From: an uncultured Verrucomicrobiota bacterium
Lineage (GTDB): Bacteria; Verrucomicrobiota; Verrucomicrobiia; Chthoniobacterales; JACTMZ01
Length of the DNA stretch: 64,000 nucleotides
Reading direction: 5' to 3'
Assembly (NCBI GenBank): GCA_903953565.1
Contig: CAJBKE010000033.1
Span: 51,210-115,209, forward strand
Part shown: positions 36,190 through 60,816 of the stretch, one piece after another
How positions within the stretch are numbered: the first letter of the stretch is position 1
How the letters are laid out: every line of letters starts with the position of its first letter
Position numbers and translations under genes: made by a program
The notes under the pieces: generated by a model
What the model was told of the DNA's origin: nothing
The model's database searches: none
Seen by the model: the letters and a program-made list of their open reading frames with translations, nothing else

Positions 36190-36203
36190 GCCGCCCAGCG
36201 GGC

Positions 36204-36337
36204 GATGGGAGATAGAAGATCGCAGATAGTAGATCGGGGGCAGGCGGAGTCTTCAGGAGATTGGAGACAAGAGATGGTAGATCGGCGCCAATCTTCTGCA
36301 TCCCATCTTCCATATCCCAGCTACCATCTTCCAATCC
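36204..36337. repeat. Palindromic AGATGG/CCATCT word element upstream of four-helix-bundle gene 1
   Basis: Purine arm GATGGGAGATAGAAGAT...AGATGGTAGATCGG, then pyrimidine arm CCAATCTTCTGCATCCCATCTTCCATATCCCAGCTACCATCTTCC. About 85% similar to the element inside wzt (36968-37078). Confidence 0.8.
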
Positions 36338-36341
36338 TTCC

Positions 36342-36722
36342 ATGAGTATGAAGTTCGAGGATTTGGAGGCGTGGAGGGAGGCGCGCATGTTGAGCAAAGA
36401 CATCTACGCGCTCACTCGGACCGGCTCACTGTCAAAAGACCTTCGGTTATGCTCGCAGGTTCAAGCCGCAGCCGTATCCGTTATGTCGAACGTTGCCGAG
36501 GGCTTCGAAAGAACGGGCAACCAAGAGAAGTTGCATTTTTACAACATCGCTCGTGCTTCGTGCGGAGAGCTGCGCTCACAGCTTTATATCATCGAAGATG
36601 TTTACACAGAGTTATCAGCAAAAACTTCAGAACTTCGGGAAGGTGCCGAGTCTGTCGGGCGGCTGATCAGCGGCCTCATCGCAAGCACGCGACGGCGTGT
36701 GGCCGGGGCCGCGAAAGAGTAG
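36342..36722 (+). CDS. Four-helix-bundle protein (23S rRNA IVS protein / Avd family), copy 1
   Basis: MSMKFEDLEAWREARMLSKDIY ... QAAAVSVMSNVAEGFER ... FYNIARASCGELRSQL matches the TIGR02436/PF05635 signature. Confidence 0.85.
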   Translation: MSMKFEDLEAWREARMLSKDIYALTRTGSLSKDLRLCSQVQAAAVSVMSNVAEGFERTGNQEKLHFYNIARASCGELRSQLYIIEDVYTELSAKTSELREGAESVGRLISGLIASTRRRVAGAAKE

Positions 36723-36738
36723 ATGGGAGATGGAAGAT
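36721..36738. repeat. Right inverted-repeat arm of cassette 1
   Basis: AGATGGGAGATGGAAGAT is complementary (16/18) to ATCTTCCATATCCCAGCT at 36305-36322. Starts within the ORF stop codon. Confidence 0.65.
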
Positions 36739-36764
36739 CAGAGGTAAAAGATAAAAGAGTCACG

Positions 36765-40741: not shown

Positions 40742-40855
40742 ATGAAAAGGACGATCGCCCTGATCGACTGGAACTGGATGGGGCACCATCCAACGTATTT
40801 CACGCATCCCGCGGCGGCGGTTGTAGTGTCAAAAGGTGTGGCATGGCGCAGTTAG
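40742..40855 (+). pseudogene. Truncated duplicate of the 5' end of the GT-B gene at 42040
   Basis: MKRTIALIDWNWMGHHPTYFTH then diverges and stops. 45 nt (40763-40807) match 42079-42123 at 44/45. Confidence 0.65.
40763..40807. repeat. 45-bp direct repeat, copy 1
   Basis: ATCGACTGGAACTGGATGGGGCACCATCCAACGTATTTCACGCAT, 44/45 identical to 42079-42123. Confidence 0.85.
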
Positions 40856-42013: not shown

Positions 42014-42039
42014 GATAGGAAGAGTTGCAAAGCAGAACG

Positions 42040-45171: not shown

Positions 45172-46496
45172 TGAGAGTCGCCATGTTGAGCTTCGAGCAC
45201 GTGCCGCATTGGCACGGCGGCATCGGCAACTACACAAAGCAGGCCGCGGGCATGCTCGCCCGTCGGGGCCACGAGGTGGAGGTGTTCTCCGCTTGCCCGG
45301 AGAGAGCTTATGACGAGCCGCGCGACGGGGTGCTCGTCCATTTTGTAGAGTGCCCGGATCGCCGGTCTTTCGCTCGCGTGGCCGCAGACTCGCTGGCGCG
45401 CGAACATGAGCGGAGGCCATTCGATGTGGTGGAGGCTCCCGACTTGGCAGCGGAGGGACTCGAGGTGTTCCGGCGCTTTCCCGACCTTGCGTCCGTGGTG
45501 CGGCTGCACACTCCGTCGTATCTCGCAGCGTGGGTCGACCGTGCGACTTTCGGCCGGCCAGCCGTAGCCGCGCACTCCGTGCGGATCGCGTTCTCCGAAG
45601 TGCTGCGCGGGCGATGGCCAAAGCAGGCGGCTTCTTTCGCCCGCATGCATTGGTCGCTTAAATCCAGCTATTCACCCGAAGGCGATGAGGAGTGCGCGGC
45701 GGCCCTGCTTGCTGACGTGATGGTGGCACCATCCCGACGGCTCGCTGCGGAGGTAGAGAGCGCTTGGCACTTGGAGTCGGGGTCTGTCCGGGTGCTGCCG
45801 TATCCGCATCAACCGGATGAGGAGATGGTGTCGTTACCTGTTCCGCGCGGCGAGGTTGCCACGATTCTGTATTACGGCGGAATCAAGGGCTTCAAAGGGG
45901 TTGATGTTTTAGCCAAGGCGATTCCCGGTGTTTTGCAGAGACACCCGCGCGTCCGGTTTATTTTTGCGGGGAAATCTCAGGGTTCGCCATTTGCCGACCT
46001 GACTCCGCGTGCATTCATCGAGGGGCGTGTTTGCCAGTGGCAAGAAATGGAGGTCTGGCTCCAAGAACGTCTGTCCGCTTTTCGGGAGTCTGTGAGCTTT
46101 CTCGGGGCGGTTGACTCCGCGGGCATTAAGCGGCTGCTTTCCGAGGCCGATATCTGTGTTTTTCCCAGCCGGTTTGATAATTTTCCTAACGCCTGTCTTG
46201 AGGCAATGGCAGCTGGTCGGCCCATCGTGGCCACGCGCTCGGGGGGTATGGAAGAGATGTTCGGACCAACCGATGCTGGCTTGCTGGTCAAGCCGGGTAG
46301 TGTGCGGGAGTTGACCGACGCGTTGGTTCGCCTGATCGAAGACCCTGCCATGCGTAGCGCGATGGCGCAGCGTGCGCGACAGCGCGTGCTGCGCGCCTAC
46401 AGTGATGATGTCATCGGACCGCTGTATGAACAGACGTATGCGGAGGCGATAGAGATGAGAGGCAAAAGGCGAGAGGCTACAGGCAAGATGAGCTAG
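45171..46496 (+). CDS. Glycosyltransferase family 4 (GT-B)
   Basis: The ATG overlaps the previous TAA (TAATG). MRVAMLSFEHVPHWHGGIGNY. C-terminal FPSRFDNFPNACLEAMAAGRPIVATRSGGMEE (EX7E region). Confidence 0.85.
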   Translation: MRVAMLSFEHVPHWHGGIGNYTKQAAGMLARRGHEVEVFSACPERAYDEPRDGVLVHFVECPDRRSFARVAADSLAREHERRPFDVVEAPDLAAEGLEVFRRFPDLASVVRLHTPSYLAAWVDRATFGRPAVAAHSVRIAFSEVLRGRWPKQAASFARMHWSLKSSYSPEGDEECAAALLADVMVAPSRRLAAEVESAWHLESGSVRVLPYPHQPDEEMVSLPVPRGEVATILYYGGIKGFKGVDVLAKAIPGVLQRHPRVRFIFAGKSQGSPFADLTPRAFIEGRVCQWQEMEVWLQERLSAFRESVSFLGAVDSAGIKRLLSEADICVFPSRFDNFPNACLEAMAAGRPIVATRSGGMEEMFGPTDAGLLVKPGSVRELTDALVRLIEDPAMRSAMAQRARQRVLRAYSDDVIGPLYEQTYAEAIEMRGKRREATGKMS

Positions 46497-46608
46497 GTGA
46501 GAGGGACGAGGCGGAGGCGGAAACTGAGGTCGGAAGTCGGAGATTATATGACAGAAAAGAGGTCGGCGGTAGACGGTGTTCAGTTTGCGGACTGGTGAAG
46601 ACAGAGTC

Positions 46609-47526
46609 ATGAGGAAGCCGACAACAGCTCTGCTGATTCCGTGCTACAACGCGGAGAAGTATCTAGACAATCTGCGCAAGCAGGTGGATGCGCTGAATCC
46701 GGCCTTCGACGAGGTGCTGCTTGTTGATGATGCGAGCACGGATGGGACTATGGCCAGGGCTCGGGAGTTGGGTTTTGCTATCCATCCGCTCCCTAACAAT
46801 CGTGGGCCCGGAGGCGCTCGAAACGCCCTGCTGCAAATGGCAACGACGGAATGGGTGCATTTCCTCGATGCCGATGATGAGCTTGCTACCGACTATTTGG
46901 CTCAAGTGCTGCCGCATGCCAATGAAGCGACGGACGTGGTTCTCAGCGCCTGCGACTTTCTCGGCGCTGCTGATCGGAAGTTCTGGGTGCGGTGGACCTA
47001 CGACAACGAGAAGTTCCGCGACAACGCGCTGGCGGCAGCAATTGCCACCCCGGTGTTTCTGCATTGCACGTTCATCCGTCGCAGCAAGGCCCTGGAGGCC
47101 GGTGGATTCGACGAGGTGCATCGCTGCTTTGAGGACGGGGATTTTCATGTGCGTCTGGCTGCGGCGGGAGCGCGGTTTGCCTGCATTCCCGATGTTTTGT
47201 CCGTGAGCTTGCGGCACTCCGAGGGCAGCGGAGGGAACGAGCTTTACTGCGCGCAATGCCGGCTCGAGTTTCTGAAGGAGTATGGCAAATACCTCGGGCG
47301 AATCCCGGCGGATGTGCTCACGGGCGCGTTGGTCAATTGTGGAGCCCGGCTGCACCAGAAGGGTGATGTTCGAGCAAGTCGTGGGGCGTTCGATCTAGCT
47401 TTTGATCTTGGTTGGAAGGGGGCGGAGTCGGGAAAGCTGCTTCTGCGTGCTGCAAACGCAATACCGAGTCGGGCTTTGAAGCGAAGTTTGTTTCTTGCGC
47501 AGCATGAGGTGAGGAACAAGGAATAG
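46609..47526 (+). CDS. Glycosyltransferase family 2
   Basis: TALLIPCYNAEKYLDNL, LVDDASTDGT, FLDADDE. Confidence 0.85.
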   Translation: MRKPTTALLIPCYNAEKYLDNLRKQVDALNPAFDEVLLVDDASTDGTMARARELGFAIHPLPNNRGPGGARNALLQMATTEWVHFLDADDELATDYLAQVLPHANEATDVVLSACDFLGAADRKFWVRWTYDNEKFRDNALAAAIATPVFLHCTFIRRSKALEAGGFDEVHRCFEDGDFHVRLAAAGARFACIPDVLSVSLRHSEGSGGNELYCAQCRLEFLKEYGKYLGRIPADVLTGALVNCGARLHQKGDVRASRGAFDLAFDLGWKGAESGKLLLRAANAIPSRALKRSLFLAQHEVRNKE

Positions 47527-47684
47527 GCTATAAGGGAGAGGTGTTTGGGGAGAAGCTATAGACGGGAGGCACGGGGCCAGAGGACGGAGATCGGAGAGCG
47601 GTGGTTCGGTAACACGGTGTTGTGGTAAGCGGAGATGAGCGGGCACAGGCCGGAGCACAGAGGTGGTATAGTGCGCGATAAACT

Positions 47685-48749
47685 ATGGCGTTGAATTTCC
47701 AGTTTAGTGAAGAACGCAGTCTGTCTTTGCGCGACAACGGCTACGACTTGGTGCGTTTGGTCTTGGCCGCGATGGTGGTGTATTCGCACTCCTACGCTGT
47801 CGGAGGCTACGGAGCGGAGCCGCTGGCGCGCTGGTCCAAGGAGCATCTCATCATGGGCGAGTTGGGAGTGCTGGGGTTTTTCGCATTGAGCGGTTTTCTC
47901 GTTTCTTCGAGCGGAGAGCGGTCTCGCTCATTGGTCTCTTACTTTGTCAAGCGGGCGCGCCGGATCTTTCCGGGCTTTTGGGTGTGTCTCGTTGTTACCG
48001 CCTTTGTCTTCGCCCCTCTCATTTGGATCATTGGAGGTCGCAGCCTTTCCGCGTTCCCTTGGGCCGAACCCCAAGGAGCTGCGTCTTACGTCACGCACAA
48101 TGCGCTTCTCCAGGTGAATCAGCACAGCATAGGTGACGTGCTGTCGGGTGCGGCGTGGCCTGGCTCGATAAACGGCAGCTTGTGGTCACTCTTTCCGGAG
48201 TTTGGATGCTACTTGGCGGTAGCGGTCCTGGTCTTCGGCGGCGCTCTGACCCGCAGTCGATGGTTGCTAGCCGGAGTGGCTGTCGGCGCGTTCATCGACC
48301 ATATCGTGATGATTGTGGTCGGCCGGGACGCATTCCCCGGGATTCCATCGTTCTACGCGTTCACCAACTGGTCGCCATATTTGACCGCGTTTGCCGTCGG
48401 CGCCTGTGCCTATGTTTGGAGAGAGCATCTGGTCTTCTCATGGAAGACGGTCGGCGTGCTTGGATTTCTCTGCTTGGTCACGTTGAAGTTCGGCGGCTTC
48501 AAGCTCGTATCGCCCCTGCTCGTCGCTGCTTTGGTGCTCAGTGCCGGCAGTTGTTTCAAGCTGCGGCTGAAGACGGATCTTTCTTACGGGCTCTATATCT
48601 ACTCGTTCCCCTGCCAGCAGTTGCTGTTCGCGTTGGGGCTTGGCGCAACAGCCGTGCCGGTGTTTGTTGTTGGAAGCATCGCGCTAAGCGCGGGGTGTGC
48701 TTGGCTGAGCTGGAGTTTTGTCGAGAGACCGGCGTTGGGGAGAGGATAA
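47685..48749 (+). CDS. Acyltransferase family 3 (membrane O-acyl/acetyltransferase)
   Basis: 354 aa, about 10 TM helices. N-terminal RDNGYDLVRLVLAAMVVYSHSY is typical of Acyl_transf_3. Confidence 0.85.
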   Translation: MALNFQFSEERSLSLRDNGYDLVRLVLAAMVVYSHSYAVGGYGAEPLARWSKEHLIMGELGVLGFFALSGFLVSSSGERSRSLVSYFVKRARRIFPGFWVCLVVTAFVFAPLIWIIGGRSLSAFPWAEPQGAASYVTHNALLQVNQHSIGDVLSGAAWPGSINGSLWSLFPEFGCYLAVAVLVFGGALTRSRWLLAGVAVGAFIDHIVMIVVGRDAFPGIPSFYAFTNWSPYLTAFAVGACAYVWREHLVFSWKTVGVLGFLCLVTLKFGGFKLVSPLLVAALVLSAGSCFKLRLKTDLSYGLYIYSFPCQQLLFALGLGATAVPVFVVGSIALSAGCAWLSWSFVERPALGRG

Positions 48750-48866
48750 GAGGAGGCGGGTAGGAGGCCATAGGCTTTAGGCTATAGGTGCAGCACAGCT
48801 GCGGACCAAAAGACCAAGAGACTAAAAGACAAAGAGTCGAAGAGCTAAAAGCGGAAAGCTACAGTC

Positions 48867-49427
48867 ATGACAATACCCGGAATCATTCAGCGTTGGCGGC
48901 GGTGGTGCTTGGCGCGGCGGGGGCTGGCGCTGGATCGGTCGTGCTATGTTGGGCCGCAGGTTTCGCTCGGGCCGGACAATGCGGCGGTGCGCGGCGAGGT
49001 CACCGCAGGTTCATACTGCGAGATTAATCAGGGCGTGGAACTTAATGCTTTCGGCGGATCAATCCGATTGGCCGACCGTGTGTGGCTCGGGCCCTATGCC
49101 GTGATCTATGGCCATGGCGGTGTTGAGATCGGTGAGTGGACGATGGTGTCGATGCACGCAACCGTTGTATCATCGAATCACGCCATCCCAGGCATGGATC
49201 GGTGCATGCGTTGGGAAAAAGATGTGCTGTTGCCGACGAAGATCGGCCGCGATGTGTGGATCGGGGCGAATGCGGTGATTCTCGGCGGCATAACCATCGG
49301 CGATGGTGCGGTGGTTGCAGCGGGAGCGGTGGTGACGAACGATGTGGAACGCGGGGCGATTGTGGCGGGGAATCCGGCGCGCGAGATGCGCAGACGAAAG
49401 GCAATAGGCGAGGGACGAGAGGACTGA
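48867..49427 (+). CDS. Hexapeptide-repeat (LbH) acetyltransferase
   Basis: VWIGANAVILGGITIGDGAVVAAGAVVTNDVERGAIVAGNPA. Confidence 0.85.
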   Translation: MTIPGIIQRWRRWCLARRGLALDRSCYVGPQVSLGPDNAAVRGEVTAGSYCEINQGVELNAFGGSIRLADRVWLGPYAVIYGHGGVEIGEWTMVSMHATVVSSNHAIPGMDRCMRWEKDVLLPTKIGRDVWIGANAVILGGITIGDGAVVAAGAVVTNDVERGAIVAGNPAREMRRRKAIGEGRED

Positions 49428-49553
49428 GGCGGTAAGGAACGAAGAGACCAAAAGACCAAGAGACAAACGAAGTGCGGCAGAGCCCCAGAGATCAGCAACC
49501 AGAGGCCAGATGGCGGAGGGCGGAGAACAGATGACGAATGAGTGCGGAAGGCG

Positions 49554-50345
49554 ATGAATCTGCCGGCTAAAACCAAAGAATCGATGAACGATCTCAAGTT
49601 GTTGTCCATAATCATCCCCGCCCGGGATGAGGAGGGATGCATTGCTTCGACAGTGGAGCACTTGCACCTCGAGTTGGAGTTACGCGGGGTGCCGCATGAG
49701 ATTGTCGTGGTCGATGATGGCTCGACGGATCGCACTTGGAACATCCTTCAGGCTGAGGGGGAAAAGTTGCCTGAGCTGAAGCCAATCAAGAACGAGGGTC
49801 CGCATGGATTCGGGCGGGCTATCGTCAAGGGGTTGGATGCCATGACTGGTGATGCGGTGGTCATCATGATGGCGGATGAGTCAGATGATTGCCGGGATGT
49901 GGTGCGCTATTGGGAGAAGCTGAACAAGGGTTACGACTGCGTGTTCGGTAGTCGCTTCATGAAGGGAGGTGGAACGATCGATTACCCACCAATCAAGCTC
50001 TTCATGAACCGGATGGCCAATGCCTTCGTCCGCTTCATGTTCCGGCATGGTCTCAACGACACGACCAACGCTTTCAAGGCTTACCGCAAAGCAGTGATTG
50101 ATGGCATTCGTCCGATTCTTTCGCCGCATTTCAACATCACCGTCGAGTTGCCGCTCAAGGCCATTGTGCGTGGCTACAGTTTCACGGTCATCCCAATCAC
50201 GTGGCGCAACCGCCGCCATGGCGTGGCCAAGCTCAAGATCAAGGAAATGGGCAGTCGCTACCTTTTCATCTGTCTTTACGTGTGGTTGGAGAAATATTTT
50301 TCGAGAGGGGACTATTTGAAAAACGAAGAAGGCAAGAGGCAATAG
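49554..50345 (+). CDS. GT2 polyprenyl-phosphate glycosyltransferase (GtrB/DPM1/ArnC-like)
   Basis: LSIIIPARDEEGCI, VVDDGSTDRT, MADESDD, and a C-terminal TM segment YLFICLYVWLEKYF. Confidence 0.8.
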   Translation: MNLPAKTKESMNDLKLLSIIIPARDEEGCIASTVEHLHLELELRGVPHEIVVVDDGSTDRTWNILQAEGEKLPELKPIKNEGPHGFGRAIVKGLDAMTGDAVVIMMADESDDCRDVVRYWEKLNKGYDCVFGSRFMKGGGTIDYPPIKLFMNRMANAFVRFMFRHGLNDTTNAFKAYRKAVIDGIRPILSPHFNITVELPLKAIVRGYSFTVIPITWRNRRHGVAKLKIKEMGSRYLFICLYVWLEKYFSRGDYLKNEEGKRQ

Positions 50346-50424
50346 GTGACAGGCGATAGGGAAGAGAGGCACTACGCGCTAGGTGAGAGGCAAGGGGAGA
50401 GAGAAATGAATAACGTGGAGAACA

Positions 50425-50446
50425 GGCTAGAGGCGAGAGGCTATAG
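50425..50446. repeat. Left inverted-repeat arm of cassette 2
   Basis: GGCTAGAGGCGAGAGGCTATAG. Its reverse complement occurs at 50827-50848 with 21/22 identity. Confidence 0.85.
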
Positions 50447-50463
50447 ACGAGAGGGGAATAGCG

Positions 50464-50832
50464 ATGGGTAAGGGAGGCTTTCGAGGATTGAAGGTTTGGC
50501 AGCGGGCGAAAGCACTGGCTGTCGATGTTTATGCTGCCGTGAAGAGTTCTCCGGAGTTGGCCAAAGATTTCGGGCTGCGTGATCAGATGCAGCGCGCGGC
50601 GGTAAGTGTCTGCAGTAATATTGCCGAAGGAGATGAAAGGGACACGGACAAGGATGCGGTTCGCTTCTTCTACATCGCAAAAGGTTCTGTTGCGGAGCTG
50701 ATCACGCAGCTCGAGATAGCCAAAGACGCGCAGCTTATCGAGTTATCGAGGGCGGACGCCCTGATCAAAGAAGCCGAGGAGATTGGCTCCATGCTTGGCG
50801 CGTTGATCAAAGCCCGCGCCGCATGCCTATAG
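50464..50832 (+). CDS. Four-helix-bundle protein (23S rRNA IVS protein / Avd family), copy 2
   Basis: GFRGLKVWQRAKALAVDVY ... RAAVSVCSNIAEGDER ... FFYIAKGSVAELITQLEIA. Confidence 0.9.
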   Translation: MGKGGFRGLKVWQRAKALAVDVYAAVKSSPELAKDFGLRDQMQRAAVSVCSNIAEGDERDTDKDAVRFFYIAKGSVAELITQLEIAKDAQLIELSRADALIKEAEEIGSMLGALIKARAACL

Positions 50833-50848
50833 CCTCTCCCCTCTAGCC
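50827..50848. repeat. Right inverted-repeat arm of cassette 2
   Basis: CTATAGCCTCTCCCCTCTAGCC. Contains the ORF stop codon TAG (50830-50832). Confidence 0.85.
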
Positions 50849-50863
50849 TCCTTCCCCCATCTC

Positions 50864-52345
50864 ATGTCTACGCGTTCAGCTCTAACGGCCATCGTCTGGT
50901 TGGCCCTCGCCTTGAGCGCGATCGTCTGGATCATGCGGATATCCAGTGCAGTCGCGCTGGATCGTCCTTTTCTTGGCAACACCAGCGGATGCGAAGAGGA
51001 GGCGCTGTTCTCGGTATGGAAAGCGGCCAATGGATACGAGGTCTACAACAACCCCTGGTTACCGCCCTTCAGTGCGAGTTACTTCGGTTGGCTATTTTAC
51101 CAAGTCTACGGTTGGTGGGCAAAGGCCGGGTTGGCGGTCAGTGGCCTCGAAGACGCTTGGCTGCCGACCTTTACGCGTATCTTCACTCTGATTGGTTTGC
51201 TCGCCTGTATTGGGGTTTTTTACCGCCTTCTGCAGACCGGAGCCAACAGGGGGGCTACATTCCCGCCGAGCCTGCTCTTCGGTTTGGCGGCTCTGGTCTT
51301 CATCAATCCCCTGTTCCATTGGTGGGCCTTCACCACGCGAGCAGACGTGTGGGCTCTGGCCTGGGAGTTGGCTGCGCTGTTGGCTGCTTTTTGCTATGCG
51401 AAGAGCGGACGAGCGCGCGCCGTGGTTCTGGTCGGGGTCTTCGCCTTCCTTGCGTGGTCATTCCGGCAGACCAATATCTCGGTGTTGGCGGGCTTTGGTC
51501 TGTGGCTCCTCGTTAATCGGCGCTGGAAGGTGTTGCTGCCCATGGTGGCGTCAATGGCTGTTGCTTTCGGTGTGACCATGGCGGTCCTGGGGATGAACTT
51601 CATCGACAGTGCTTTCACCGCCAATGCCCTCAGCGGTGACATGCGAAGCTCGGTGGCGATCGCCAATGCATCCAGTGCGCTCACCAAGGACCCGCTTTTG
51701 ACGCTCGCGCTCGGCGCCGCTTTCGTTCTGGTTTTTTTCGCGGGCAAATGGTGGCACAACAACGCATCACGGCTGGCTTTTCTTGTCGCGGCCACGTCCG
51801 TCTTTCTTGCGGCAGCGCTTGCCGCCAAGGTTGGTGCGAGTTCAAACTACTACCTGCCGCCGGCTGCGCTGGTGCCGCTGTTTGTTCTTGTAGCGCTATC
51901 CCGCTGCGAGTTTCCGAGTTTTCTCAACGCGGGTTTCATTGGCGCCGGAGCTGCCGGAATCGGCCTGGCTAGCGCTTTGGTGCTGTCGGGAGCGAGTGGC
52001 AACCTGCGCTCGCCGGGGGACGAGCGTCTGCATGAAATGCGGGCGCTGCGCCGGGAATTGCGCGAGCCGGTCTTTAGCACTGACCGCGTGGTCAATTTGC
52101 CGTGGATTTTGGGTAATGGGCCGGAGAGCTACGTGTTCGGCTATGCCTATCAAAGAATGCTGGCAGCCAAGCCGGAGAAATTTACCGGTGGCACAATCGC
52201 CGATCTCCTCCGAGGCGGGCGCTTCAGCACCTTGATCACGCTTGAGGATAGCGCCTCTTATGTCGCCACAGCGGAAGAGTTGGCGGATTTCACAAGCGCA
52301 GGGGGAACGGTGAGGGAAGTGCGTAAGCGCGAAGGCGGGCTGTAA
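50864..52345 (+). CDS. Polytopic membrane protein, putative GT-C-type glycosyltransferase (ArnT/PMT-like)
   Basis: 493 aa, more than 10 TM helices. Follows a GtrB-like GT2. The function is inferred from context and topology only. Confidence 0.55.
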   Translation: MSTRSALTAIVWLALALSAIVWIMRISSAVALDRPFLGNTSGCEEEALFSVWKAANGYEVYNNPWLPPFSASYFGWLFYQVYGWWAKAGLAVSGLEDAWLPTFTRIFTLIGLLACIGVFYRLLQTGANRGATFPPSLLFGLAALVFINPLFHWWAFTTRADVWALAWELAALLAAFCYAKSGRARAVVLVGVFAFLAWSFRQTNISVLAGFGLWLLVNRRWKVLLPMVASMAVAFGVTMAVLGMNFIDSAFTANALSGDMRSSVAIANASSALTKDPLLTLALGAAFVLVFFAGKWWHNNASRLAFLVAATSVFLAAALAAKVGASSNYYLPPAALVPLFVLVALSRCEFPSFLNAGFIGAGAAGIGLASALVLSGASGNLRSPGDERLHEMRALRRELREPVFSTDRVVNLPWILGNGPESYVFGYAYQRMLAAKPEKFTGGTIADLLRGGRFSTLITLEDSASYVATAEELADFTSAGGTVREVRKREGGL

Positions 52346-52369
52346 GCAGGACAGAATGTTGGCAGTAGG

Positions 52370-52386
52370 CGGTAGTCAGTCGGCAG
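52370..52386. repeat. Left inverted-repeat arm of cassette 3
   Basis: CGGTAGTCAGTCGGCAG, complementary (14/17) to 52871-52887. A related word GCCGTAGTCGGTAGACAGTTGGCAGC occurs at 52481-52506. Confidence 0.5.
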
Positions 52387-52523
52387 AAAAAAATAAGTCA
52401 GCAGGCGTTGGTTGACGGTAGTCATCACAAGGCGAGTCAAACATGGCGTGCTTTGAAGATAGCAAAAGAGTCAGGGGTTGGCCGTAGTCGGTAGACAGTT
52501 GGCAGCAATTACAGAGACGAGCA

Positions 52524-52874
52524 ATGGCGGGATTTGAAGATTTGGAAGTTTGGCAACGGGCGGTGGCGCTTAGTGCGGATGTGTATCGTCGAATGGCTTC
52601 CTGCAAAGACTTCGGATTTCGTGATCAGATCACGCGATCTGCTCTTTCGATACCGTCCAACATAGCGGAGGGCATGGAGCGAAGCTCCGTCCCTGATCGC
52701 TCGAAGTTTCTGGACTACGCTCGTGGTTCTTGCGGCGAGTTTCGAACTCAAGCAACCGTTGGGACTAAAGCCGGCTTGCTCGAGTCAGCGCTCGCCGAAG
52801 AGTGGATCGCTGCAAGCCGCACTTTATCGGCGATGATCCAAGGGCTTATCCGCTCTCTGAAAACCGCAAACTGA
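52524..52874 (+). CDS. Four-helix-bundle protein (23S rRNA IVS protein / Avd family), copy 3
   Basis: MAGFEDLEVWQRAVALSADVY ... RSALSIPSNIAEGMER ... FLDYARGSCGEFRTQ. Confidence 0.9.
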   Translation: MAGFEDLEVWQRAVALSADVYRRMASCKDFGFRDQITRSALSIPSNIAEGMERSSVPDRSKFLDYARGSCGEFRTQATVGTKAGLLESALAEEWIAASRTLSAMIQGLIRSLKTAN

Positions 52875-52887
52875 CGACTGATGACCG
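52871..52887. repeat. Right inverted-repeat arm of cassette 3
   Basis: CTGACGACTGATGACCG. Spans the cassette stop codon and the ATG of the next GT2 gene. Confidence 0.5.
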
Positions 52888-53945
52888 ACGACTCTACGAA
52901 GCCTTCGGTTTCCGTGATCATTCCTGCCTACGGGCGGGTGGAGCCGCTGAAGTATACTTTGCGCAGCGCGGCGGTGTGCGCGCACGAGTCAGGGGTTCAT
53001 TGCGAAATCATCGTGGTCGATGACGGCTCCGAGCCGTCGATCGAGGAGCAGTTGGCCGGTTTCGATGTGGGGCATCCCGTGCGCTTTGTTCGCCAGGCGA
53101 ACCAAGGATCGATCGTCGCGCGGCTCACCGGCTTTCACGCCGCGACGGGGAAGTATGTGTTCTTCCTCGATTCCGATGATGTGGTTCAGCCGGACAAGCT
53201 CGGCGCGCATCTGCGAGCCATGGAAGAGAGCGGCGCTGATGTGAGCTACAGCGACTCGGCGGAAGCCAAGCTTGAGGCGGACTACGGAGTGTCTTTCGGT
53301 GCGGCGACCACACATTTTCCAACCGTGGACAGTGCATTGGATCTTTTGGTCAGGATACAGCCCGCGCCTTACAGTCCGGTTTATCGTAGATCTTATTTAG
53401 CCAAAGCCTTGGACAGCCCGATGATTCCGATTCACCGGATATACGATCCCTCGGGTGATGTGTGGCTCTATCGTGCCGCAGCCATGGTGCCGGGCAAAGC
53501 GGTGAGGGTTCGAGGCCATCTTGCCGCGACCGGTCCGCACGAAGAGAACCGTTTCAGTTTGTGTTGGGAAAAGCTTGGAGTGGCCTCCCTTGGTATCGAC
53601 GAGGCTGTGATGGCAAGTTGTCCGATGACTGCTGAAACGGAATCATTTCGGAGCGCAGTGGGCGAGGTGGCCTTCCGCTCATGGCGGATGCTTCCGGCGG
53701 ATGTGTTGCCGCAATTCGATCGACGCATGCTTGCGCTATGGCGCCAGGCTCCACGACAGCGCCCGAAGCAGATGGGTGGACGCTCTTTCCGCATGGTCGC
53801 GCGGTTGCTGGGTTGGGTGGGTGCCGGGCGATTGTTCCGTCGCTTGCAGCGGCCGACGTATGCGCAGTGCAAGACCTTGCGGGATGAGGGGGAATTTGCG
53901 GAGTTGGTGGCGAAGCTGCCCGCGGCGCGGGGGCATGAGGCGTGA
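52881..53945 (+). CDS. Glycosyltransferase family 2
   Basis: VSVIIPAYGRVEPLKYTLRS, VVDDGSEPS, FLDSDD. Confidence 0.8.
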   Translation: MTDDSTKPSVSVIIPAYGRVEPLKYTLRSAAVCAHESGVHCEIIVVDDGSEPSIEEQLAGFDVGHPVRFVRQANQGSIVARLTGFHAATGKYVFFLDSDDVVQPDKLGAHLRAMEESGADVSYSDSAEAKLEADYGVSFGAATTHFPTVDSALDLLVRIQPAPYSPVYRRSYLAKALDSPMIPIHRIYDPSGDVWLYRAAAMVPGKAVRVRGHLAATGPHEENRFSLCWEKLGVASLGIDEAVMASCPMTAETESFRSAVGEVAFRSWRMLPADVLPQFDRRMLALWRQAPRQRPKQMGGRSFRMVARLLGWVGAGRLFRRLQRPTYAQCKTLRDEGEFAELVAKLPAARGHEA

Positions 53946-54054
53946 GGCAAGAGGCAAGAGGCGCCAGGAAGGAGGCTAGGCACGGATCAACGCGGATTCG
54001 CGCGGATTATTCTTCGTGCGCACACGCACGAAGCAAAGTGATTGCTTGGGGAAC

Positions 54055-55077
54055 ATGAGTGAGAGCGCGGTAAAGATAGCGGCGAGCGTCTTGATTCCGA
54101 CGCATAATCCGCGGCGGGACTATCTCGCGCGGGTGGTAGAAGCGTTGCGCGGCCAGACTCTACCGCGCGAGCGGTGGGAGTTGCTCGTCGTCGATAACAG
54201 CTCGCGGGAGAAATTAGAAGGAAGAGTGGATATCGGGTGGCATCCGAGTGCGCGGGTGGTGTGGGAGGAAAGGCTTGGGCTTACGTTCGCGCGGCTCCGG
54301 GGTTTTGCCGAAGCAAAGGGTAAGCTCATTGTGATGGTCGATGATGACAATGTGCTCGCGCCCGATTATCTCGAAGCGGCTGTGCGTATTGCGCAGGAGC
54401 AACCCGCACTTGGAGCATTTGGAGGGAAATGTCTGCCTGAGTTTGAAGTGGAGCCGGAGCCTTGGCTCGAGGCTAGAGGCAAGGGGCTGGGGCTTCGCGA
54501 TCGTGGCGAACGGGAAGAGTTCTTCCCGGAAGCCGCGGTCGCGGAGGGTGGGAAAGTGGGAAAGTGGGAAGGTGGCAAGGTAAAGCGCGCGGTGCGCCAG
54601 TTTCCGGATTGTGCGCCGATTGGGGCAGGGATGGTCTTGCGGCGGGACGCCGCTCGGGCTTATGCCGAGCGGCTTCAGGTTCGAGGCGAGAGGCAGGAGG
54701 CACGAGGTAAAGAGACGATTACGGATAGGAAAGGCGACAGTTTGGCGTCGGGTGGAGACAATGACATTTGCCTTACGGTGATTGAGGAGGGTTGGCAGGT
54801 CGGGTATTTGCCGCAGTTGCAACTCATGCATTTGATTCCGGAGCGCCGCATGACGCTGGATTACCACAAGCGCATGGCACGGGATTCGATGAAAAGTTTT
54901 ATCCTGATGCTTGATCAGCACGGGATCCGTCCTTGGTCGGCCATGCCGAAGTGGACGTTGCCGTTGCGGGTGGCGAGTGACTGGTGGCGGGTCAAGCCAT
55001 GGCAAGGACCAGGGCAGTCGCTGAGCTTTTGGGGAAACGTCGGGATGTATGAGGGTCGCGCGGCCTTGCCGTGCTAA
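54055..55077 (+). CDS. Glycosyltransferase family 2 (paralog of 34179 and 39705, with word-repeat segments)
   Basis: ATG 54055. ASVLIPTHNPRRDYLARVVEAL, LLVVDNSS, MVDDDNVLAPDY. About 23 aa longer than its paralogs. Confidence 0.8.
   Translation: MSESAVKIAASVLIPTHNPRRDYLARVVEALRGQTLPRERWELLVVDNSSREKLEGRVDIGWHPSARVVWEERLGLTFARLRGFAEAKGKLIVMVDDDNVLAPDYLEAAVRIAQEQPALGAFGGKCLPEFEVEPEPWLEARGKGLGLRDRGEREEFFPEAAVAEGGKVGKWEGGKVKRAVRQFPDCAPIGAGMVLRRDAARAYAERLQVRGERQEARGKETITDRKGDSLASGGDNDICLTVIEEGWQVGYLPQLQLMHLIPERRMTLDYHKRMARDSMKSFILMLDQHGIRPWSAMPKWTLPLRVASDWWRVKPWQGPGQSLSFWGNVGMYEGRAALPC
54548..54579. repeat. Tandem degenerate 8-mer (GTGGGAAA x4) inside the GT2 coding sequence
   Basis: GTGGGAAA GTGGGAAA GTGGGAAG GTGGCAAG, encoding GKVGKWEGGKV. 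Confidence 0.8.
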
Positions 55078-55252
55078 GGTGAGAGGCATGAGGCACTAGG
55101 TAAACAGGCGTTAGTCCCGAGGCGTAAGGCGAGCAGGCGAAAAAGCCGAGAGAACAGAAATCAAAGGTCAGGGGTCGGAGATAGGAGTTCGCACAACAGA
55201 CCTCAGAAACCAGATGCCGGAGGCCGGAGAGCGAAAGACAGAGGACGTAAAG

Positions 55253-56263
55253 ATGCAGGTGAAGCTCACAGAGAAGGAGATTGCCACGGCGCTGGCGCGC
55301 ATACCACCGCCGCCAGGCCCGCGTCCCCCGATCACGGCGGGCGCAGTGGTTTATTGGACATGGCATTACCCGAAGCTCGTCCGGCGCGATGGGGCGCGTG
55401 CGCATTGGGAGGCGTGGCTGGGACGCCGGCGTTTTGTGCGGGCCTTGCGGGACCACAATCCCGAGCCGCCAGCCGGTGTGACCAGGGAAAACCCGCTTGT
55501 GGTCTCGCTTCTCGCGGGTCGCAAACACTCCGCATTAGCCGCACTTGCGCTGCTCTCGTTGCAGCAAAACACGCAAAGGCCGGTCCATCCGGTTGTGCAC
55601 GATGACGGAACACTTACTGTCGCACACCGTGACGAATTAAAGCGCTTCTTTCCGTCGACGCATTTTGTCTCCACCGACGAGATGTGCGTGGCTTTGGACC
55701 GCGTGATCCCCGAGCGGTCTTTCCCTGTTCTTCGTGGCCTTCGCAAAGGCTACATGCACCTGCGAAAACTCACGGACATCCATGCCTCGGGACGAGGGTG
55801 GACACTGGTGATGGACAGTGATGTGATCTTCTATCGCCGACCCGAGGAGCTTCTCCACGCGGTTGATGGATGCGAATGGGGACACATGGTCGACTGCCAG
55901 ACCAGCTACGGCTGTGATGTGAGTTTGCTGCGCGACTTGTCCGGCTTGAATGTGCATTCGCGCCTGAATGCCGGCCTTCTAAACATCAAAAGCTCCGATG
56001 TTGACTGGGAATTCCTTGAGTATGCGGCTGGCGCGATCCTGGCCAAAGCCGGCTTCTCCTATTACCTCGAGCAAGCACTGCTTGCCGTCCTCATGGCGAA
56101 ACACGGCGCCCGCGCATTCGACGCCGGACAGTATCTGGTTAATCCGACGGAGACCCAGTCGCGCGAACAACGCGAAGTTGCGCACCATTATGTGGACCGC
56201 TCGGTTCTTCACCTTTACCGGTTCGCGTGGCAGGGAATCTTGGGGCAGGGTGAAAGGCGATAG
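55253..56263 (+). CDS. Uncharacterised GT-A-like (nucleotide-diphospho-sugar transferase-like) protein, paralog A
   Basis: ATG 55253. LVMDSDVIFY (DxD) and YYLEQALLAVLMA. Clear paralog of 56689..57687. Confidence 0.6.
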   Translation: MQVKLTEKEIATALARIPPPPGPRPPITAGAVVYWTWHYPKLVRRDGARAHWEAWLGRRRFVRALRDHNPEPPAGVTRENPLVVSLLAGRKHSALAALALLSLQQNTQRPVHPVVHDDGTLTVAHRDELKRFFPSTHFVSTDEMCVALDRVIPERSFPVLRGLRKGYMHLRKLTDIHASGRGWTLVMDSDVIFYRRPEELLHAVDGCEWGHMVDCQTSYGCDVSLLRDLSGLNVHSRLNAGLLNIKSSDVDWEFLEYAAGAILAKAGFSYYLEQALLAVLMAKHGARAFDAGQYLVNPTETQSREQREVAHHYVDRSVLHLYRFAWQGILGQGERR

Positions 56264-56280
56264 GCGCTAGGCGAGAGGCG
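56255..56280. repeat. Left inverted-repeat arm of cassette 4
   Basis: AGGCGATAGGCGCTAGGCGAGAGGCG. The reverse complement of 56657-56682 matches 23/26. Contains the stop codon of the upstream gene. Confidence 0.75.
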
Positions 56281-56366
56281 GAAGAGGAAACAGGCGATAG
56301 GTGGCTAGGCGACAGGGGAAACAGGCGCTGGGCGATAGGTAAAACTAGGCGAGAGAAAATACGATA

Positions 56367-56684
56367 ATGGGTAAACGGGGATTTAGGGATTTGAAGGTTT
56401 GGCAACGGGCGAAGGCGCTGGCTGTCGAGGTTTATGCTGCGGTGAGGAGATCACCAGATTTGGCGAAGGAGTTTGGGCTGCGCGATCAGATGCAGCGCTC
56501 TGCCGTTAGCGTTTGTAGCAACATTGCGGAGGGGGACGAAAGAGACATGGATAAGGACGCGGTGCGCTTCTTTTATATGGCAAAAGGTTCGGTCGCAGAG
56601 TTAATCACACAACTCGAGATCGCGAAGGACGTCCGCGCCTCCTGCCTAAAGCCCATCGCCTCTTGCCTAGAGCCTATTGCCTGA
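56367..56684 (+). CDS. Four-helix-bundle protein, copy 4 (C-terminally truncated; possibly decaying)
   Basis: About 80% nt-similar to copy 2 through QLEIAKD. The last helix is then replaced by repeat-encoded ASCLKPIASCLEPIA. Confidence 0.7.
   Translation: MGKRGFRDLKVWQRAKALAVEVYAAVRRSPDLAKEFGLRDQMQRSAVSVCSNIAEGDERDMDKDAVRFFYMAKGSVAELITQLEIAKDVRASCLKPIASCLEPIA
56657..56682. repeat. Right inverted-repeat arm of cassette 4
   Basis: CGCCTCTTGCCTAGAGCCTATTGCCT. The ORF stop TGA follows at 56682-56684. Confidence 0.75.
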
Positions 56685-56688
56685 TCCC

Positions 56689-57687
56689 ATGACTTTAGGA
56701 CGTCTGGTATACGTGCTCTACCACCGGCCGGTTGGCCGGTTAAAAACGTGCTTACGCGAGGGTGGCCCGATCCAACAGTGGAAGACGGAGAAGGGGAGGA
56801 GGGAGATGGAGCAGGCGGCCTACGGCCTGACTGCTCCAGTGACGAGTGACAAGTGGCGAGTGACGAGTGCTTCGGAGGTCGGAGGTCAGATATCAGACAT
56901 CCGGTCCCCGATCTCTGGAGCGCCGGTCGAGATCCATATGTTGGTGGGAACGCGGTTTTGGTTTATGGCTGCCTACGCGTTGGTAAGTTTACAGCGGCAG
57001 ATCGACCGCGCGTTGCACGTGCATTTTTACGACGATGGGTCGCTCGAGGCGCGGCAACGGGAGAAGCTCAGAGAGTTGGCAGCGGAAGTGACTTTTCATG
57101 ACCGTGCAGGTATCGATGCGCGAATCGGGCAATATCTGCCGGAAGAGAAGTTCCCGTTTATCCGTGAGCGGCTGCGGAATTACCCGAATCTGAAAAAGCT
57201 GACGGATCCTCATGTTGGCTCAAGTGGGCCAAAGCTGGTCATGGATGCTGATGTCTTGTTTTTCGGTTGGCCGAAGGAATTACTTCAATGGTCCGATACA
57301 CCTGAAACCATTCTCTGCGCCACTGATGTAACTGAGAGCTATGGATACTCGCGGGCATTGATGGAGAAATTGGCCGGGGCGCCGATTCCCCTAGACATCA
57401 ATGTCGGCATTACTGGTCTGCAATCCGAGTCTCTGAACTGGCAAGAGCTGGAGCGCTGGTGTCGCGAGCTGATCACGCACGAGAAGACCAACTATTATCT
57501 CGAACAAGCACTCGTTGCGATGCTGTGTGCGCAGCGCCCTTTCACGCAGCTGCCCTTGGAGCGATATATCACCGGACCTTCCGACACGCAGGTGCTGGTA
57601 GGGGAAGGTGTAATGCAGCATTACGTGGACCTCTCAAAGAAGGAATACTTCCGAAAGGTGTGGAAGAAATTCACTGCTGAATCGTGA
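56689..57687 (+). CDS. Uncharacterised GT-A-like protein, paralog B
   Basis: LVMDADVLFF (DxD) and YYLEQALVAMLCA. The N-terminal region carries an ~83-nt word-repeat insertion. Confidence 0.6.
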   Translation: MTLGRLVYVLYHRPVGRLKTCLREGGPIQQWKTEKGRREMEQAAYGLTAPVTSDKWRVTSASEVGGQISDIRSPISGAPVEIHMLVGTRFWFMAAYALVSLQRQIDRALHVHFYDDGSLEARQREKLRELAAEVTFHDRAGIDARIGQYLPEEKFPFIRERLRNYPNLKKLTDPHVGSSGPKLVMDADVLFFGWPKELLQWSDTPETILCATDVTESYGYSRALMEKLAGAPIPLDINVGITGLQSESLNWQELERWCRELITHEKTNYYLEQALVAMLCAQRPFTQLPLERYITGPSDTQVLVGEGVMQHYVDLSKKEYFRKVWKKFTAES

Positions 57688-58631
57688 GTGCGCCACTCGT
57701 TTCCATATGCATGCCCTGCTACAACGCGGGAAAATATGTGGCCGAAGCCATAGACTCGGTGCTGGCGCAAACTTATCCCAACCTAGAGATCATCGTGGTC
57801 AATGATGGCTCCAAGGACAACAGCGCCGAGGTGACTGAGGGTTACCGGTCGAAGGGTGTGAAAGTCATTCACCAGGAGAATCGAGGCCAGTGCGCCGCGG
57901 CCAACCGCGCCTACGCCGAAGCGCGGGGCGAATACATCAAGTTTTTCGATGCGGACGACATTCTTTCGCCGGGTTTTGTCGAGGCTCAGATGCGGCGACT
58001 GAATGGGCGGACTGATGCGGTTGCTTCGGCGAGATGGGGGCGTTTCTACAATGATGATGTTTTGAGTGCTCAAACAACTCCCGAAGCAAACTGGAAAGAC
58101 ATGGAGCCGACCGATTGGTTGGTAGAGTCGTACATCGACTGCCGGGGAGTCATGCAATGCGCGCTGTGGATGCTTCCCCGGATGCTACTGGAAAAAACCG
58201 GCGTTTGGGACGAGCGGCTTTCGTTGATCAATGACTTCGAGTTTTTCTCGCGTGTGTTGTGCCATGCGAGTGAAGTTCTTTTCTGCGAGGACGCGATCTT
58301 ATATTATCGTTCCGGAATCTCGGGATCGTTAAGCGCGCAAATGTCGCACAAAGCGCGTGAATCTGAGTGCGACTCGCTGCTCATGGGAACGAGCCATCTG
58401 CTGGCCAAACGCTCCGACCCTAGGGCCCGTCTAGCGTGTGCCAATGTCTGCCAGCACTTGATCTTCGATTTGTATCCACAGTATCCCGATTTACGCGCCA
58501 AGTTGGCGGCCAGAGTTGCCGAGTGTGGCGGAGCTGAAATCAAGCCTTCCGGGGGTAGGTATTTCCAGATGCTGAGGCCCTTCATCGGTTGGAAACTGGC
58601 GCGACGCTTGCAGCGAGCTTGCGGCCGTTGA
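57684..58631 (+). CDS. Glycosyltransferase family 2
   Basis: VSICMPCYNAGKYVAEAIDSVLAQ, VVNDGSKDNS, FFDADD. The start overlaps the previous stop. Confidence 0.85.
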   Translation: MSAPLVSICMPCYNAGKYVAEAIDSVLAQTYPNLEIIVVNDGSKDNSAEVTEGYRSKGVKVIHQENRGQCAAANRAYAEARGEYIKFFDADDILSPGFVEAQMRRLNGRTDAVASARWGRFYNDDVLSAQTTPEANWKDMEPTDWLVESYIDCRGVMQCALWMLPRMLLEKTGVWDERLSLINDFEFFSRVLCHASEVLFCEDAILYYRSGISGSLSAQMSHKARESECDSLLMGTSHLLAKRSDPRARLACANVCQHLIFDLYPQYPDLRAKLAARVAECGGAEIKPSGGRYFQMLRPFIGWKLARRLQRACGR

Positions 58632-59940: not shown

Positions 59941-59976
59941 GCGCTAGGCAAGAGGCGATAGGAAGTTAAAGAGGCG

Positions 59977-60738: not shown

Positions 60739-60816
60739 GGTCAGAAGTCGGAGATCAGAGGTCTGGGCGATTGCTTAAAACTTACAAACTTAATTCGTAA
60801 AACTGGCAGAAACTTT

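Follow-up and report, generated by a model that had tools for sequence, protein, structure and literature searches.

Introduction

For the proteins encoded by intervening sequences (IVSs) of bacterial ribosomal RNA (rRNA), the S23p or IVS proteins, we know of no function after 30 years, despite thousands of members and solved structures, and reports of tandem heptamers in the spacers of bacteria have appeared many times, to our knowledge without a mechanism. Here we analyse a locus at which the two occur together. It lies in a 64,000-nucleotide (nt) stretch of DNA from an uncultured freshwater bacterium of the Verrucomicrobiota (contig CAJBKE010000033.1), a phylum to which the closest homologs also point; the stretch is referred to below as the window. 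The locus consists of a gene for a four-helix-bundle protein of the S23p family (Pfam PF05635) flanked by heptamer arrays in opposed orientation, at positions 50425-50848. We call this unit cassette 2. It appears to be a clean instance of a widespread, operon-dwelling variant of the rRNA IVS element, a variant that has apparently not been described.

The 23S rRNA IVS of Coxiella burnetii is 428 nt long, and its terminal inverted repeats pair into a 28-bp stem interrupted by one mismatch and a bulge; three GACAGAT tandem heptamers, strain-variable in number, lie between a Shine-Dalgarno-like sequence and the S23p ATG (PMC4990558). The site of RNase III cleavage is in the stem, at the first of the heptamers, and the element is regarded as a selfish insert of unknown mobility whose S23p is thought to be unexpressed and decaying (PMC4990558). 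For S23p-encoding IVSs in Coxiella and Leptospira, that paper cites Ralph & McClelland 1993 and Afseth 1995. Cassette 2 resembles these IVSs in the length of the unit (424 nt, against 428 nt in Coxiella), in a stem of 22-28 bp with a single mismatch, in strain-variable tandem heptamers just 5' of the ATG and in its PF05635 open reading frame (ORF). It differs in lying in the spacer of a protein-coding operon, between genes for a family 2 glycosyltransferase (GT2) and a GT-C-like membrane protein, rather than in helix 45 of 23S rRNA; its protein is intact and under strong purifying selection, in contrast to the Coxiella S23p, and RNase III cleavage, which has been shown in Coxiella, would be expected here by analogy. 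Cassette 2 has every anatomical feature of an IVS but not the defining location, helix 25 or 45 of a 23S rRNA gene; it lies in an mRNA spacer: a search of the window against Rfam returned two tRNAs and no rRNA, placing the cassette outside any 23S rRNA gene.

Among the heptamer repeats, the short tandemly repeated repetitive (STRR) sequences of heterocystous cyanobacteria are said to have been described as intergenic tandem heptamers by Mazel in 1990. The TAACTGA repeats of Beggiatoaceae, Cyanobacteria and Bacteroidetes stand in forward orientation before gene starts, overlap the ends of upstream ORFs and place stops in three frames (PMC4679880); the GGGAATC repeats of Xanthomonas include 70 convergent pairs (PMC4692102); and paired heptamer/octamer sites in Geobacter metallireducens have been read as IHF/HU sites (PMC2700814). 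These three papers do not mention the PF05635 family, and the supplement of PMC4692102 records, with no comment, an array that overlaps the start of XCC0516, a PF05635 protein that has been crystallised. The arrays treated here share with these repeats a 7-nt unit present 2-14 times, an intergenic position that is mostly forward before starts or over the end of the upstream ORF, stops in all three frames, strain-variable length, patchy spread across phyla and the occurrence of some convergent pairs. Those of the window in particular fit the description in their period-7 rows, their 47 forward matches to a common pattern (below) and the ~10 stop codons that fall inside them, and the CTGACTC/CTGAATT units of a cassette in Nostoc belong to the same family as the Geobacter 'class 3' repeat MTYCTGA. 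Unlike the known repeats, the arrays here bracket a PF05635 gene in inverted orientation. In the open full-text literature (closed-access papers being outside our scope) we found no paper that ties PF05635 genes outside rRNA to flanking heptamer arrays.

PF05635 genes have also been noted in cas operons, as with the 23S_rRNA_IVP gene between cmr3 and cmr2 of Pleurocapsa PCC 7327, where the RxxxSxxxNxxE motif of the family was described and the genes were read as possibly CRISPR-associated; flanking repeats were not described (PMC3936711). Cassette 2 shares with these genes the conserved motif and a tight slot between two linked, co-directional genes, but its host operon, like most of the other host contexts we found, is devoted to polysaccharide.

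Anatomy of cassette 2

The initial annotation held that the two arms of the element are reverse complements with a single mismatch, and this is correct. The left arm (50425-50446, + strand; GGCTAGAGGCGAGAGGCTATAG) and the right arm (50827-50848, + strand; CTATAGCCTCTCCCCTCTAGCC) match at 21 of 22 positions, the mismatch being a C/C opposition, and an added A-T pair, which brings in A50424, lengthens the match to 50424/50849, giving arms of 23 nt (50424..50446 and 50827..50849) that are complementary at 22 of 23 positions. The inverted-repeat score of the cassette lies well above that of shuffled flanking sequence (z = 10.7). Between the arms lies the intact PF05635 gene (50464..50832, +), a 122-aa ORF that begins, as annotated, 18 nt past the left arm and ends in a TAG (50830-50832) within the right arm. 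The 17-nt purine-rich leader that runs from the left arm to the ATG (50447..50463, +; GACGAGAGGGGAATAGCG) probably holds the ribosome-binding site of the cassette gene, and a 14-nt pyrimidine-rich link (50850..50863, +; TCCTTCCCCCATCTC), which is conserved in the orthologous cassettes of two related contigs, L045 and L049, joins the right arm to the next gene.

Both arms are made of heptamers. The left arm reads as the units GGCTAGA GGCGAGA GGCTATA, and the right arm is a pyrimidine-rich array of the reverse complements of these. The left arm is part of a longer forward, purine-rich array region (50329..50461, +) with AGGCNNN units at 50329-50454, assigned to repeat families D1, D2 and D6. Allowing up to 3 mismatches, the 22-mer of the arm has 4 matches in the window, against 0.00 expected from shuffles of the window; two of these are the arms themselves and the others (35127-35148 and 46461-46482) are forward arrays in other spacers, so that the left arm is one member of a dispersed family of heptamer arrays and not a unique terminus. 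The right arm is the more unusual feature. The pattern AGGCNNNAGGCNNNAGG, with at most 1 mismatch, has 55 matches in the window against 1.6 expected, of which 47 lie on the + strand, at ~14 sites; the remaining 8 lie on the - strand, solely at 50819-50849 and 56638-56682. These, the only two reverse AGGC arrays of the whole 64 kb, mark where the four-helix-bundle genes of cassettes 2 and 4, close relatives of each other, have their 3' ends, and it is this confinement that sets the right arm apart.

The arrays vary in length. The right arm is 24 nt longer in the lake-sample runs X4 and X14 and ~72 nt longer in the ortholog of L045, and cassette 2 thus shows the IVS trait of tandem heptamers 5' of the ORF start combined with array lengths that differ among strains and orthologs. 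The earlier description of the arms as terminal inverted repeats is accordingly only partly right: the inverted repeat is real, but the arms are tandem heptamer arrays of variable length and not the fixed ends of an element.

The encoded protein

The cassette gene belongs to PF05635 (23S_rRNA_IVP) by a match of 119 bits (E = 1.2e-34; cut-off 33.8) that covers positions 3-105 of the 106-position profile, and it also exceeds the NCBIfam cut-offs for TIGR02436 (123 bits against 24) and NF008912 (138 against 124). An AlphaFold2 model of the protein, with a mean confidence (pLDDT) of 94.2, consists of four long helices arranged as a four-helix bundle. Foldseek aligned this model with 2GSC (XCC0516) at a TM-score of 0.87-0.92 and a root-mean-square deviation of 1.4, and with 2RLD (BT_0352) at 0.81-0.91, Avd being more distant. 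In the RxxxSxxxNxxE motif, S48, N52 and E55 are invariant in all four PF05635 copies of the window, and R44 is retained in copies 2, 3 and 4 and replaced by Ala in copy 1.

Compared with close relatives from other metagenomes, the cassette-2 protein gives dN/dS values of 0.02-0.09 at saturated dS, while the genes that flank those relatives in the same contigs are just 41-74% identical, far below the conservation of the PF05635 protein. By this measure the protein is under strong purifying selection and thus has a function. The likeliest role, judging by its relative Avd, is nucleic acid binding. Avd, the accessory protein of diversity-generating retroelements (DGRs), has the same fold and superfamily (TM-scores of 0.73-0.86 to 4DWL and 8UB7, together with a weak PF22296 match), but we rejected the possibility that the cassette-2 protein is itself a DGR Avd: it scores 34.6 against the cut-off of 80 for the equivalog family NF033474, and the genes called within 5 kb include no reverse transcriptase, although no search was aimed at a template/variable repeat pair. 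The called genes over that distance encode glycosyltransferases, one acyltransferase, one hexapeptide transferase and PF05635 proteins.

In L045 (4000-4278) and L049 (686-964) the cassette gene is split by a 279-nt insert that carries a 79-aa GIY-YIG ORF and has imperfect inverted ends (CTCCGCCCCG...CGCGCCGGAGG). The insertion point corresponds to 50624-50626 (+) of the window, exactly between A54 and E55 in the invariant SNIA|EG motif. The window copy lacks the insert, and some strains of the window's species carry it, as loose ends in runs X3 and X6 agree with the ends that the insert has in L045 and L049. Once the insert is taken out, both split genes are intact frames that still look selected (dN/dS 0.068 at dS 1.1). 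From its sequence, the insert looks like a homing-type parasite of the cassette.

Insertion between a GT2 and a GT-C gene

From ~33 kb to 63.6 kb the window is one co-directional polysaccharide cluster, with GT2 genes, one GT4 gene, genes for an acyltransferase and a hexapeptide transferase, and ABC-2 transporter genes. Upstream of the cassette lies a GT2 gene of the polyprenyl-phosphate class (GtrB/ArnC/DPM1-like; 49542..50345, +; Pfam Glycos_transf_2, 1.7e-23), the final ~6 codons and stop of which fall within the heptamer array; its top NCBIfam matches are AglJ, a dolichyl-P hexose transferase (DPM-like), PgfS, ArnC and PpgS, each under its curated cut-off. Downstream lies a gene for a 493-aa polytopic membrane protein (50864..52345, +) that matched no Pfam or NCBIfam family; its assignment as GT-C/ArnT-like comes from a distant homolog, P0018, named as a member of the ArnT family (34% identity, E 1.6e-56).

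The annotation that the cassette splits a linked GT2/GT-C pair is supported: all the related contigs that we examined have the GT2 and GT-C genes as neighbours. (A scan of metagenome contigs with the GT-C protein as query gave no match; its orthologs came from a protein search and were then traced to their contigs.) What stands between them varies. The cassette occupies the slot in the window, in L045 (GT-C 79% identical), in L049 (69%) and in one contig with a 99% identical GT-C protein; a methyltransferase gene occupies it in L044, L046, L047 and L048 (70-82% identical); and the slot is empty in two cases. In one relative the gap measures 134 nt. In the other, a contig from run X11 that is ~85% identical, position 50311 connects to 50912 by 89 nt, not 600, and the GT2 and GT-C genes abut directly, separated by ~7 nt. 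Comparison of these filled and empty sites indicates that cassette 2 is an insertion between GT2 and GT-C, and in the filled site no direct target duplication is visible next to 50424/50849.

Gene order in the cluster is mosaic between relatives, as seen when L060 is aligned with 49593-58628 of the window. A copy-2-like cassette (93% aa identity) lies there between orthologs of the 54016 GT2 gene and the 56806 gene; L060 lacks the 55214-56263 gene and has a GtrB-like GT2 gene downstream.

Other cassettes in the window

A tblastn search found four PF05635 genes in the window, each with inverted flanks. Cassette 1 (36291..36752, +) lies between genes for an ABC-2 permease and an ABC ATPase; its gene (36342/36348-36722) stands between arms at 36291-36324 and 36719-36752, made of ATCTTCC / GGAAGAT heptamers. 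Cassette 3 (52364..52893, +) has its gene at 52524-52874 and weak arms of GTAGTCG-type heptamers at 52364-52386 and 52871-52893, the right one extending into the next GT2 gene. Cassette 4 (56255..56682, +; arms 56255-56280 and 56657-56682, AGGCNNN heptamers) is a paralog of cassette 2, with 81-87% amino-acid identity, and its ORF (56367-56684) is truncated past codon 90, reading into the reverse array. Cassettes 2 and 4 are homologous from the forward array through the ORF to the end of the reverse array and unrelated in the flanks beyond, which rules out a longer segmental duplication, and copies with equivalent boundaries exist, four in the window and at ~30 loci elsewhere; these were the two points on which the initial annotation had proposed that its element would stand or fall.

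Cassette 2 was also singled out as the cleanest copy and as the best template for defining the element. Within the window the former is true, with an arm match of 21/22 against 23/26, 27/34 and 17/23 in the others. The latter is not: beyond close relatives the 424-bp unit makes a poor BLASTN template, because the sequence of the arms varies from cassette to cassette. The four window cassettes draw on three unrelated heptamer families, and no terminal sequence is common to all copies.

The site of cassette 3 (52330-52901) is polymorphic. In the strain of run X4, 549 unrelated nt replace 572 nt of the window, and the strain with the 99%-identical GT-C protein has another PF05635 gene at this site, of 119 aa and with different spacing. 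On this comparison of sequences, the site has undergone a recent replacement of one cassette by another at a fixed position. We also considered the cassettes as anchors for recombination and dropped the idea, the copies being only ~80% identical in nucleotides, with saturated dS.

Distribution of the cassettes across bacteria

A scan of one genome per species yielded 40 loci with relatives 35-68% identical (best segment), and a profile search inside those loci added ~20 further PF05635 genes. Since resemblance to copy 2 was the basis on which loci were chosen, its clade is over-represented in the sample; simple rules served to call ORF starts and control ORFs, and the tandem arrays render arm alignments ambiguous. 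The loci come from Verrucomicrobiota (many of them Opitutaceae), Cyanobacteria, Burkholderiales, Geobacteraceae, Clostridia, Nitrospirota, Kiritimatiellia, Acidobacteria, Chloroflexota, Bacteroidota and others.

The inverted-array design is present at all four window genes and at about three quarters of ~45 relatives from more than 10 phyla. The median inverted-repeat score is 31.5 at 32 PF05635 genes, against 15 at 110 other ORFs of the same loci (Mann-Whitney p 1e-13), and three of the five high-scoring 'control' ORFs proved to be further PF05635 genes. Up to 150 nt from a PF05635 gene, strict period-7 arrays have 7.5x the density found in the rest of these loci. The design is polar, the left arm being purine-rich in 26 of 28 cassettes (p 3e-6), and its geometry is constant: in these 28 the median distance is 16.5 nt between left arm and ATG and 6.5 nt between stop and right arm, and the median arm length is 29 nt. 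Cassette 2 fits in, with 17 nt, -6 nt and 23 nt respectively.

Heptamer types differ between cassettes (AGGCNAN, GGTGAAT, AGGTGTA, TCAGGTN, ATCTCAA, GGAGATA and more), with the same type in both arms of any one cassette. When each left arm was compared with all right arms, the best fit was its own right arm in 16 of 33 cases, and its own ranked third or better in 25 of 33 (permutation p < 1e-4). Arm similarity moreover rises with protein identity (Spearman 0.50, Mantel p < 5e-4), and proteins at least 55% identical to copy 2 have AGGC-type arms nearly without exception, regardless of phylum. The arms of a cassette thus evolve in concert, and the fit of each arm to its own partner, taken with the covariation of arms and protein, means that gene and arms evolve as one unit; from the same comparisons, they probably also travel as one.

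A textbook copy exists in a culturable organism, on plasmid pNPUN01 of Nostoc punctiforme PCC 73102 (NPUN_RS33770; L051, 1520-1965). Here CAGGAGT/CAGAATT arrays start where the preceding gene stops, the array complementary to them overlaps the four-helix-bundle gene's stop codon, and the following ATG lies 2 nt further on. Genes for sugar-nucleotide and polysaccharide functions are over-represented around PF05635 genes (NTP_transferase, HAD, SIS, epimerases, RmlD, GDP-mannose dehydratase, Wza and Wzz). Co-orientation of the neighbours, at about three quarters, is not clearly over the usual bacterial background and was not used as evidence.

In two of the loci, L026 (4782-4857) and L021 (1471-1513), forward-plus-reverse heptamer pairs with no ORF between them, together with solo arrays, lie 0.7-1.4 kb from the local PF05635 cassette and belong to its heptamer family.

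RNA folding and a proposed mechanism

When the RNA of 50400-50870 is folded, the minimum-free-energy and centroid structures are both closed by a helix between the arms (z -3.5), and the arms alone, joined by a short artificial loop, give -44 kcal/mol (z -7.5). The corresponding values for copies 4, 1 and 3 are -51, -26.5 and -26.3 kcal/mol (z -9.6, -4.3 and -4.7). A closing arm-arm helix is therefore predicted for cassette 2 by these models. Rfam has no family on the cassette, the sole match being a chance miRNA (E 0.69), and a scan for promoters and terminators in and beside the cassette gave nothing over shuffle expectation. Of the RNA sequencing runs queried, none contained the cassette and none contained locus L013. 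Two ORF-less hairpins elsewhere in the window (36200-36345 and 36960-37090) were tried as structured elements and dropped, since they fold no better than shuffles (z 0.09 and -1.5).

The explanation we favour, and hold to be probable by a modest degree, is that cassette 2 is an IVS-type cassette, with an S23p-family gene and opposed heptamer arrays, that resides in the GT2/GT-C spacer and works as follows. The cassette is predicted to be transcribed as part of the operon and, through its purine-rich left and pyrimidine-rich right arms, to form a ~23-bp helix that contains one mismatch, seals a 380-nt, ORF-bearing loop and brings the GT2 gene's end beside the start of the GT-C gene. Like the stems of the rRNA IVSs of Coxiella and Leptospira, this helix may be a substrate for RNase III, such that the insert would be cut or looped out of the host RNA, limiting polarity on GT-C. 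The forward array may serve to give stop codons to the upstream gene and a purine-rich leader to the cassette gene; as pairing of the right arm would mask that leader, the cassette gene would be translated mainly before the stem forms. Slippage would lengthen or shorten the arrays, and selection for pairing would keep the arms complementary. As to how cassettes spread, we found no transposase within 5 kb, no fixed termini and no visible target duplication.

Several observations weigh against this explanation. Purifying selection as strong as that on the cassette-2 protein is hard to square with an IVS that is purely selfish and in decay, as has been proposed for Coxiella, and about a quarter of PF05635 genes have no clear arms. 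Mismatches between arms comprise 41 G-U-compatible and 49 A-C-type changes (sense strand), plus 50 transversions; with no excess of G-U-compatible changes there is no covariation signal specific to RNA, and copying at the level of DNA could equally explain the matching of the arms. Translation through to the stop within the right arm would melt the stem. Near-copies of the left arm in other spacers mean that its pairing partners are not unique, and reverse arrays of other families occur with no cassette at 30040-30280.

Alternative explanations

In a first alternative, the arms matter chiefly as binding sites. A PF05635 protein, probably an oligomer, would recognise tandem heptamers, one clade for each heptamer type, and the complementarity of the arms would be secondary; the flanking arrays would be cis sites for autoregulation and the solo forward arrays trans targets, and the whole would regulate the polysaccharide cluster as a network, post-transcriptionally (or at the level of DNA). 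In favour of this, the protein is conserved far better than its neighbours and too well for a decaying passenger, and heptamer type co-varies with protein clade across phyla. Even at more than 200 nt from a PF05635 gene, solo arrays look like the local gene's arms (in 9 of 22 cases the match ranks third or better among 41, where ~1.6 cases would be expected; median rank 5), and the window has 14 forward AGGC arrays besides the arms. Further points in its favour are that relatives by fold include Avd, the RNA- and reverse transcriptase-binding component of the DGR ribonucleoprotein, that 2GSC has five chains and that a typical array has 4-6 units (also in PMC4692102 and PMC2700814); intergenic heptamer repeats have, moreover, already been proposed to form a regulatory network lacking a known factor (PMC4679880). 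Yet recognition of heptamers by a protein leaves unexplained why the downstream array stands in reverse complement and why an arm fits its own partner best, even within one heptamer family. There are more array families in the window than PF05635 types, and joint inheritance of gene and arms might be enough to account for the association. On balance we consider this explanation unlikely.

The arms might instead be the terminal inverted repeats of a non-autonomous DNA transposon, similar to a miniature inverted-repeat transposable element (MITE), with its transposase encoded elsewhere and the RNA stem a by-product. MITEs, repetitive extragenic palindromic (REP) elements and Rickettsia palindromic elements are short inverted-repeat elements of spacers, some of them in-frame within genes, and the window has comparable in-frame segments derived from heptamers at 36968-37085 and 54543-54714. 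Presence, absence and replacement at fixed sites, several copies per genome with unrelated outer flanks and protein identities of 60-68% across phyla, which suggest horizontal spread, would all be in keeping with transposition. Against this, the cassette differs from such elements in having a conserved protein gene, tandem-array arms specific to each copy and no visible target duplication beside them; cassettes of the same genome differ in arm sequence, length and heptamer family, the ends of the arms are fuzzy, strain-variable arrays, no transposase lies within 5 kb, and the strict polarity, with the purine-rich arm upstream of the ORF in 26 of 28, is unexpected for symmetric transposase sites. 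We judge a transposon of this kind to be decidedly improbable. That the inverted repeat has no function at all, being a chance or mutational by-product of slippage-prone heptamer spacers in which the four-helix-bundle gene is an ordinary resident, would account for forward arrays everywhere in the cluster, for the reverse arrays of other families at 30040-30280, which have no PF05635 gene, and for the missing G-U bias. It sits badly with the finding that the sole two reverse AGGC arrays of 64 kb directly follow two AGGC-type PF05635 genes, with the recurrence of the same architecture in Cyanobacteria, Burkholderiales, Geobacteraceae, Clostridia, Nitrospirota and others, whose genomes are otherwise not array-rich, and with the comparison to control ORFs (p 1e-13), and we give it very little weight.

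Implications

These results indicate that S23p-family genes and heptamer repeats belong together, and that the anatomy of the IVS is the normal state of PF05635 genes outside rRNA. They also show a unit that enters between tightly linked operon genes and does so without obviously breaking them. For annotation, PF05635 genes found in cas, lipopolysaccharide or capsule operons are probably inserts and not components of the pathway, and the arrays of the cassettes break metagenome assemblies and can pass for repeats of other kinds.

A more speculative proposition, which we think rather unlikely, is that PF05635 proteins are the missing trans-acting partners of tandem heptamer repeats in general (STRR, TAACTGA, GGGAATC and others). 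If that were true, an oligomer, probably a pentamer, would read ~4-6 heptamers with one protomer per unit, tuned by clade, and protein, cis site and anti-site would together make each cassette a self-contained module, passing from genome to genome. Solo arrays seeded in operon spacers would then put neighbouring genes under post-transcriptional control, and the rRNA IVS would be the special case of a module that has landed in rRNA. Both puzzles, that of the protein and that of the repeats, can now be approached by experiment in culturable carriers such as Nostoc punctiforme and Xanthomonas campestris.

Other repeats in the window

Nearly every spacer of the polysaccharide cluster longer than 35 nt consists of purine-rich heptamer or octamer arrays, inside which lie the stop codons of ~10 genes. 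Solo forward arrays with no adjoining four-helix-bundle gene lie at 34339-34362, 35119-35216, 46445-46511, 47517-47583, 48743-48836 and 49391-49467, and further along at 53930-53976, 55077-55190, 56240-56351, 59917-59976 and 60717-60763; they belong to the families AGGCNNN, GGTCAGA/GGAGATC, GACCAAAA and AGTGACG. The pyrimidine-rich spacer at 30040-30280, between an exosortase and a carbamoyltransferase gene (both +), holds reverse arrays that complement forward arrays 19-30 kb downstream (30055-30086 with 60774-60804, 30162-30199 with 49411-49448 and 30208-30237 with 56839-56868).

Array sequence also occurs in frame within genes. In the ABC ATPase gene it lies in the linker (36968-37085) before the ABC domain, which starts at residue 116, and in the GT2 gene at 54016-55077 it occupies 54463-54486, 54543-54581 and 54676-54714, yielding low-complexity peptides such as GGKVGKWEGGKV and RGERQEARGKE.

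Repeats of other kinds are also present. A REP-like, GC-rich palindromic repeat of 27-29 nt (GGTAGGGCGGGGCCTCCGGACCCGCCG) occurs in both orientations, with 96-100% identity, at 6762-6790, 10217-10244, 23979-24006 and 24026-24054, and a second inverted pair, of 36 nt, has arms 13 kb apart (7618-7653 and 20987-21022). In the 435-nt spacer upstream of 41093, a 63-nt stretch (40757-40819) is 90% identical to 42073-42135, inside the gene at 42025-43275, and is probably a gene fragment left by rearrangement. At 8496-9402, within a long ORF, a 261-nt unit is repeated in tandem three to four times (65-74% identity) and probably encodes a repeated protein domain.

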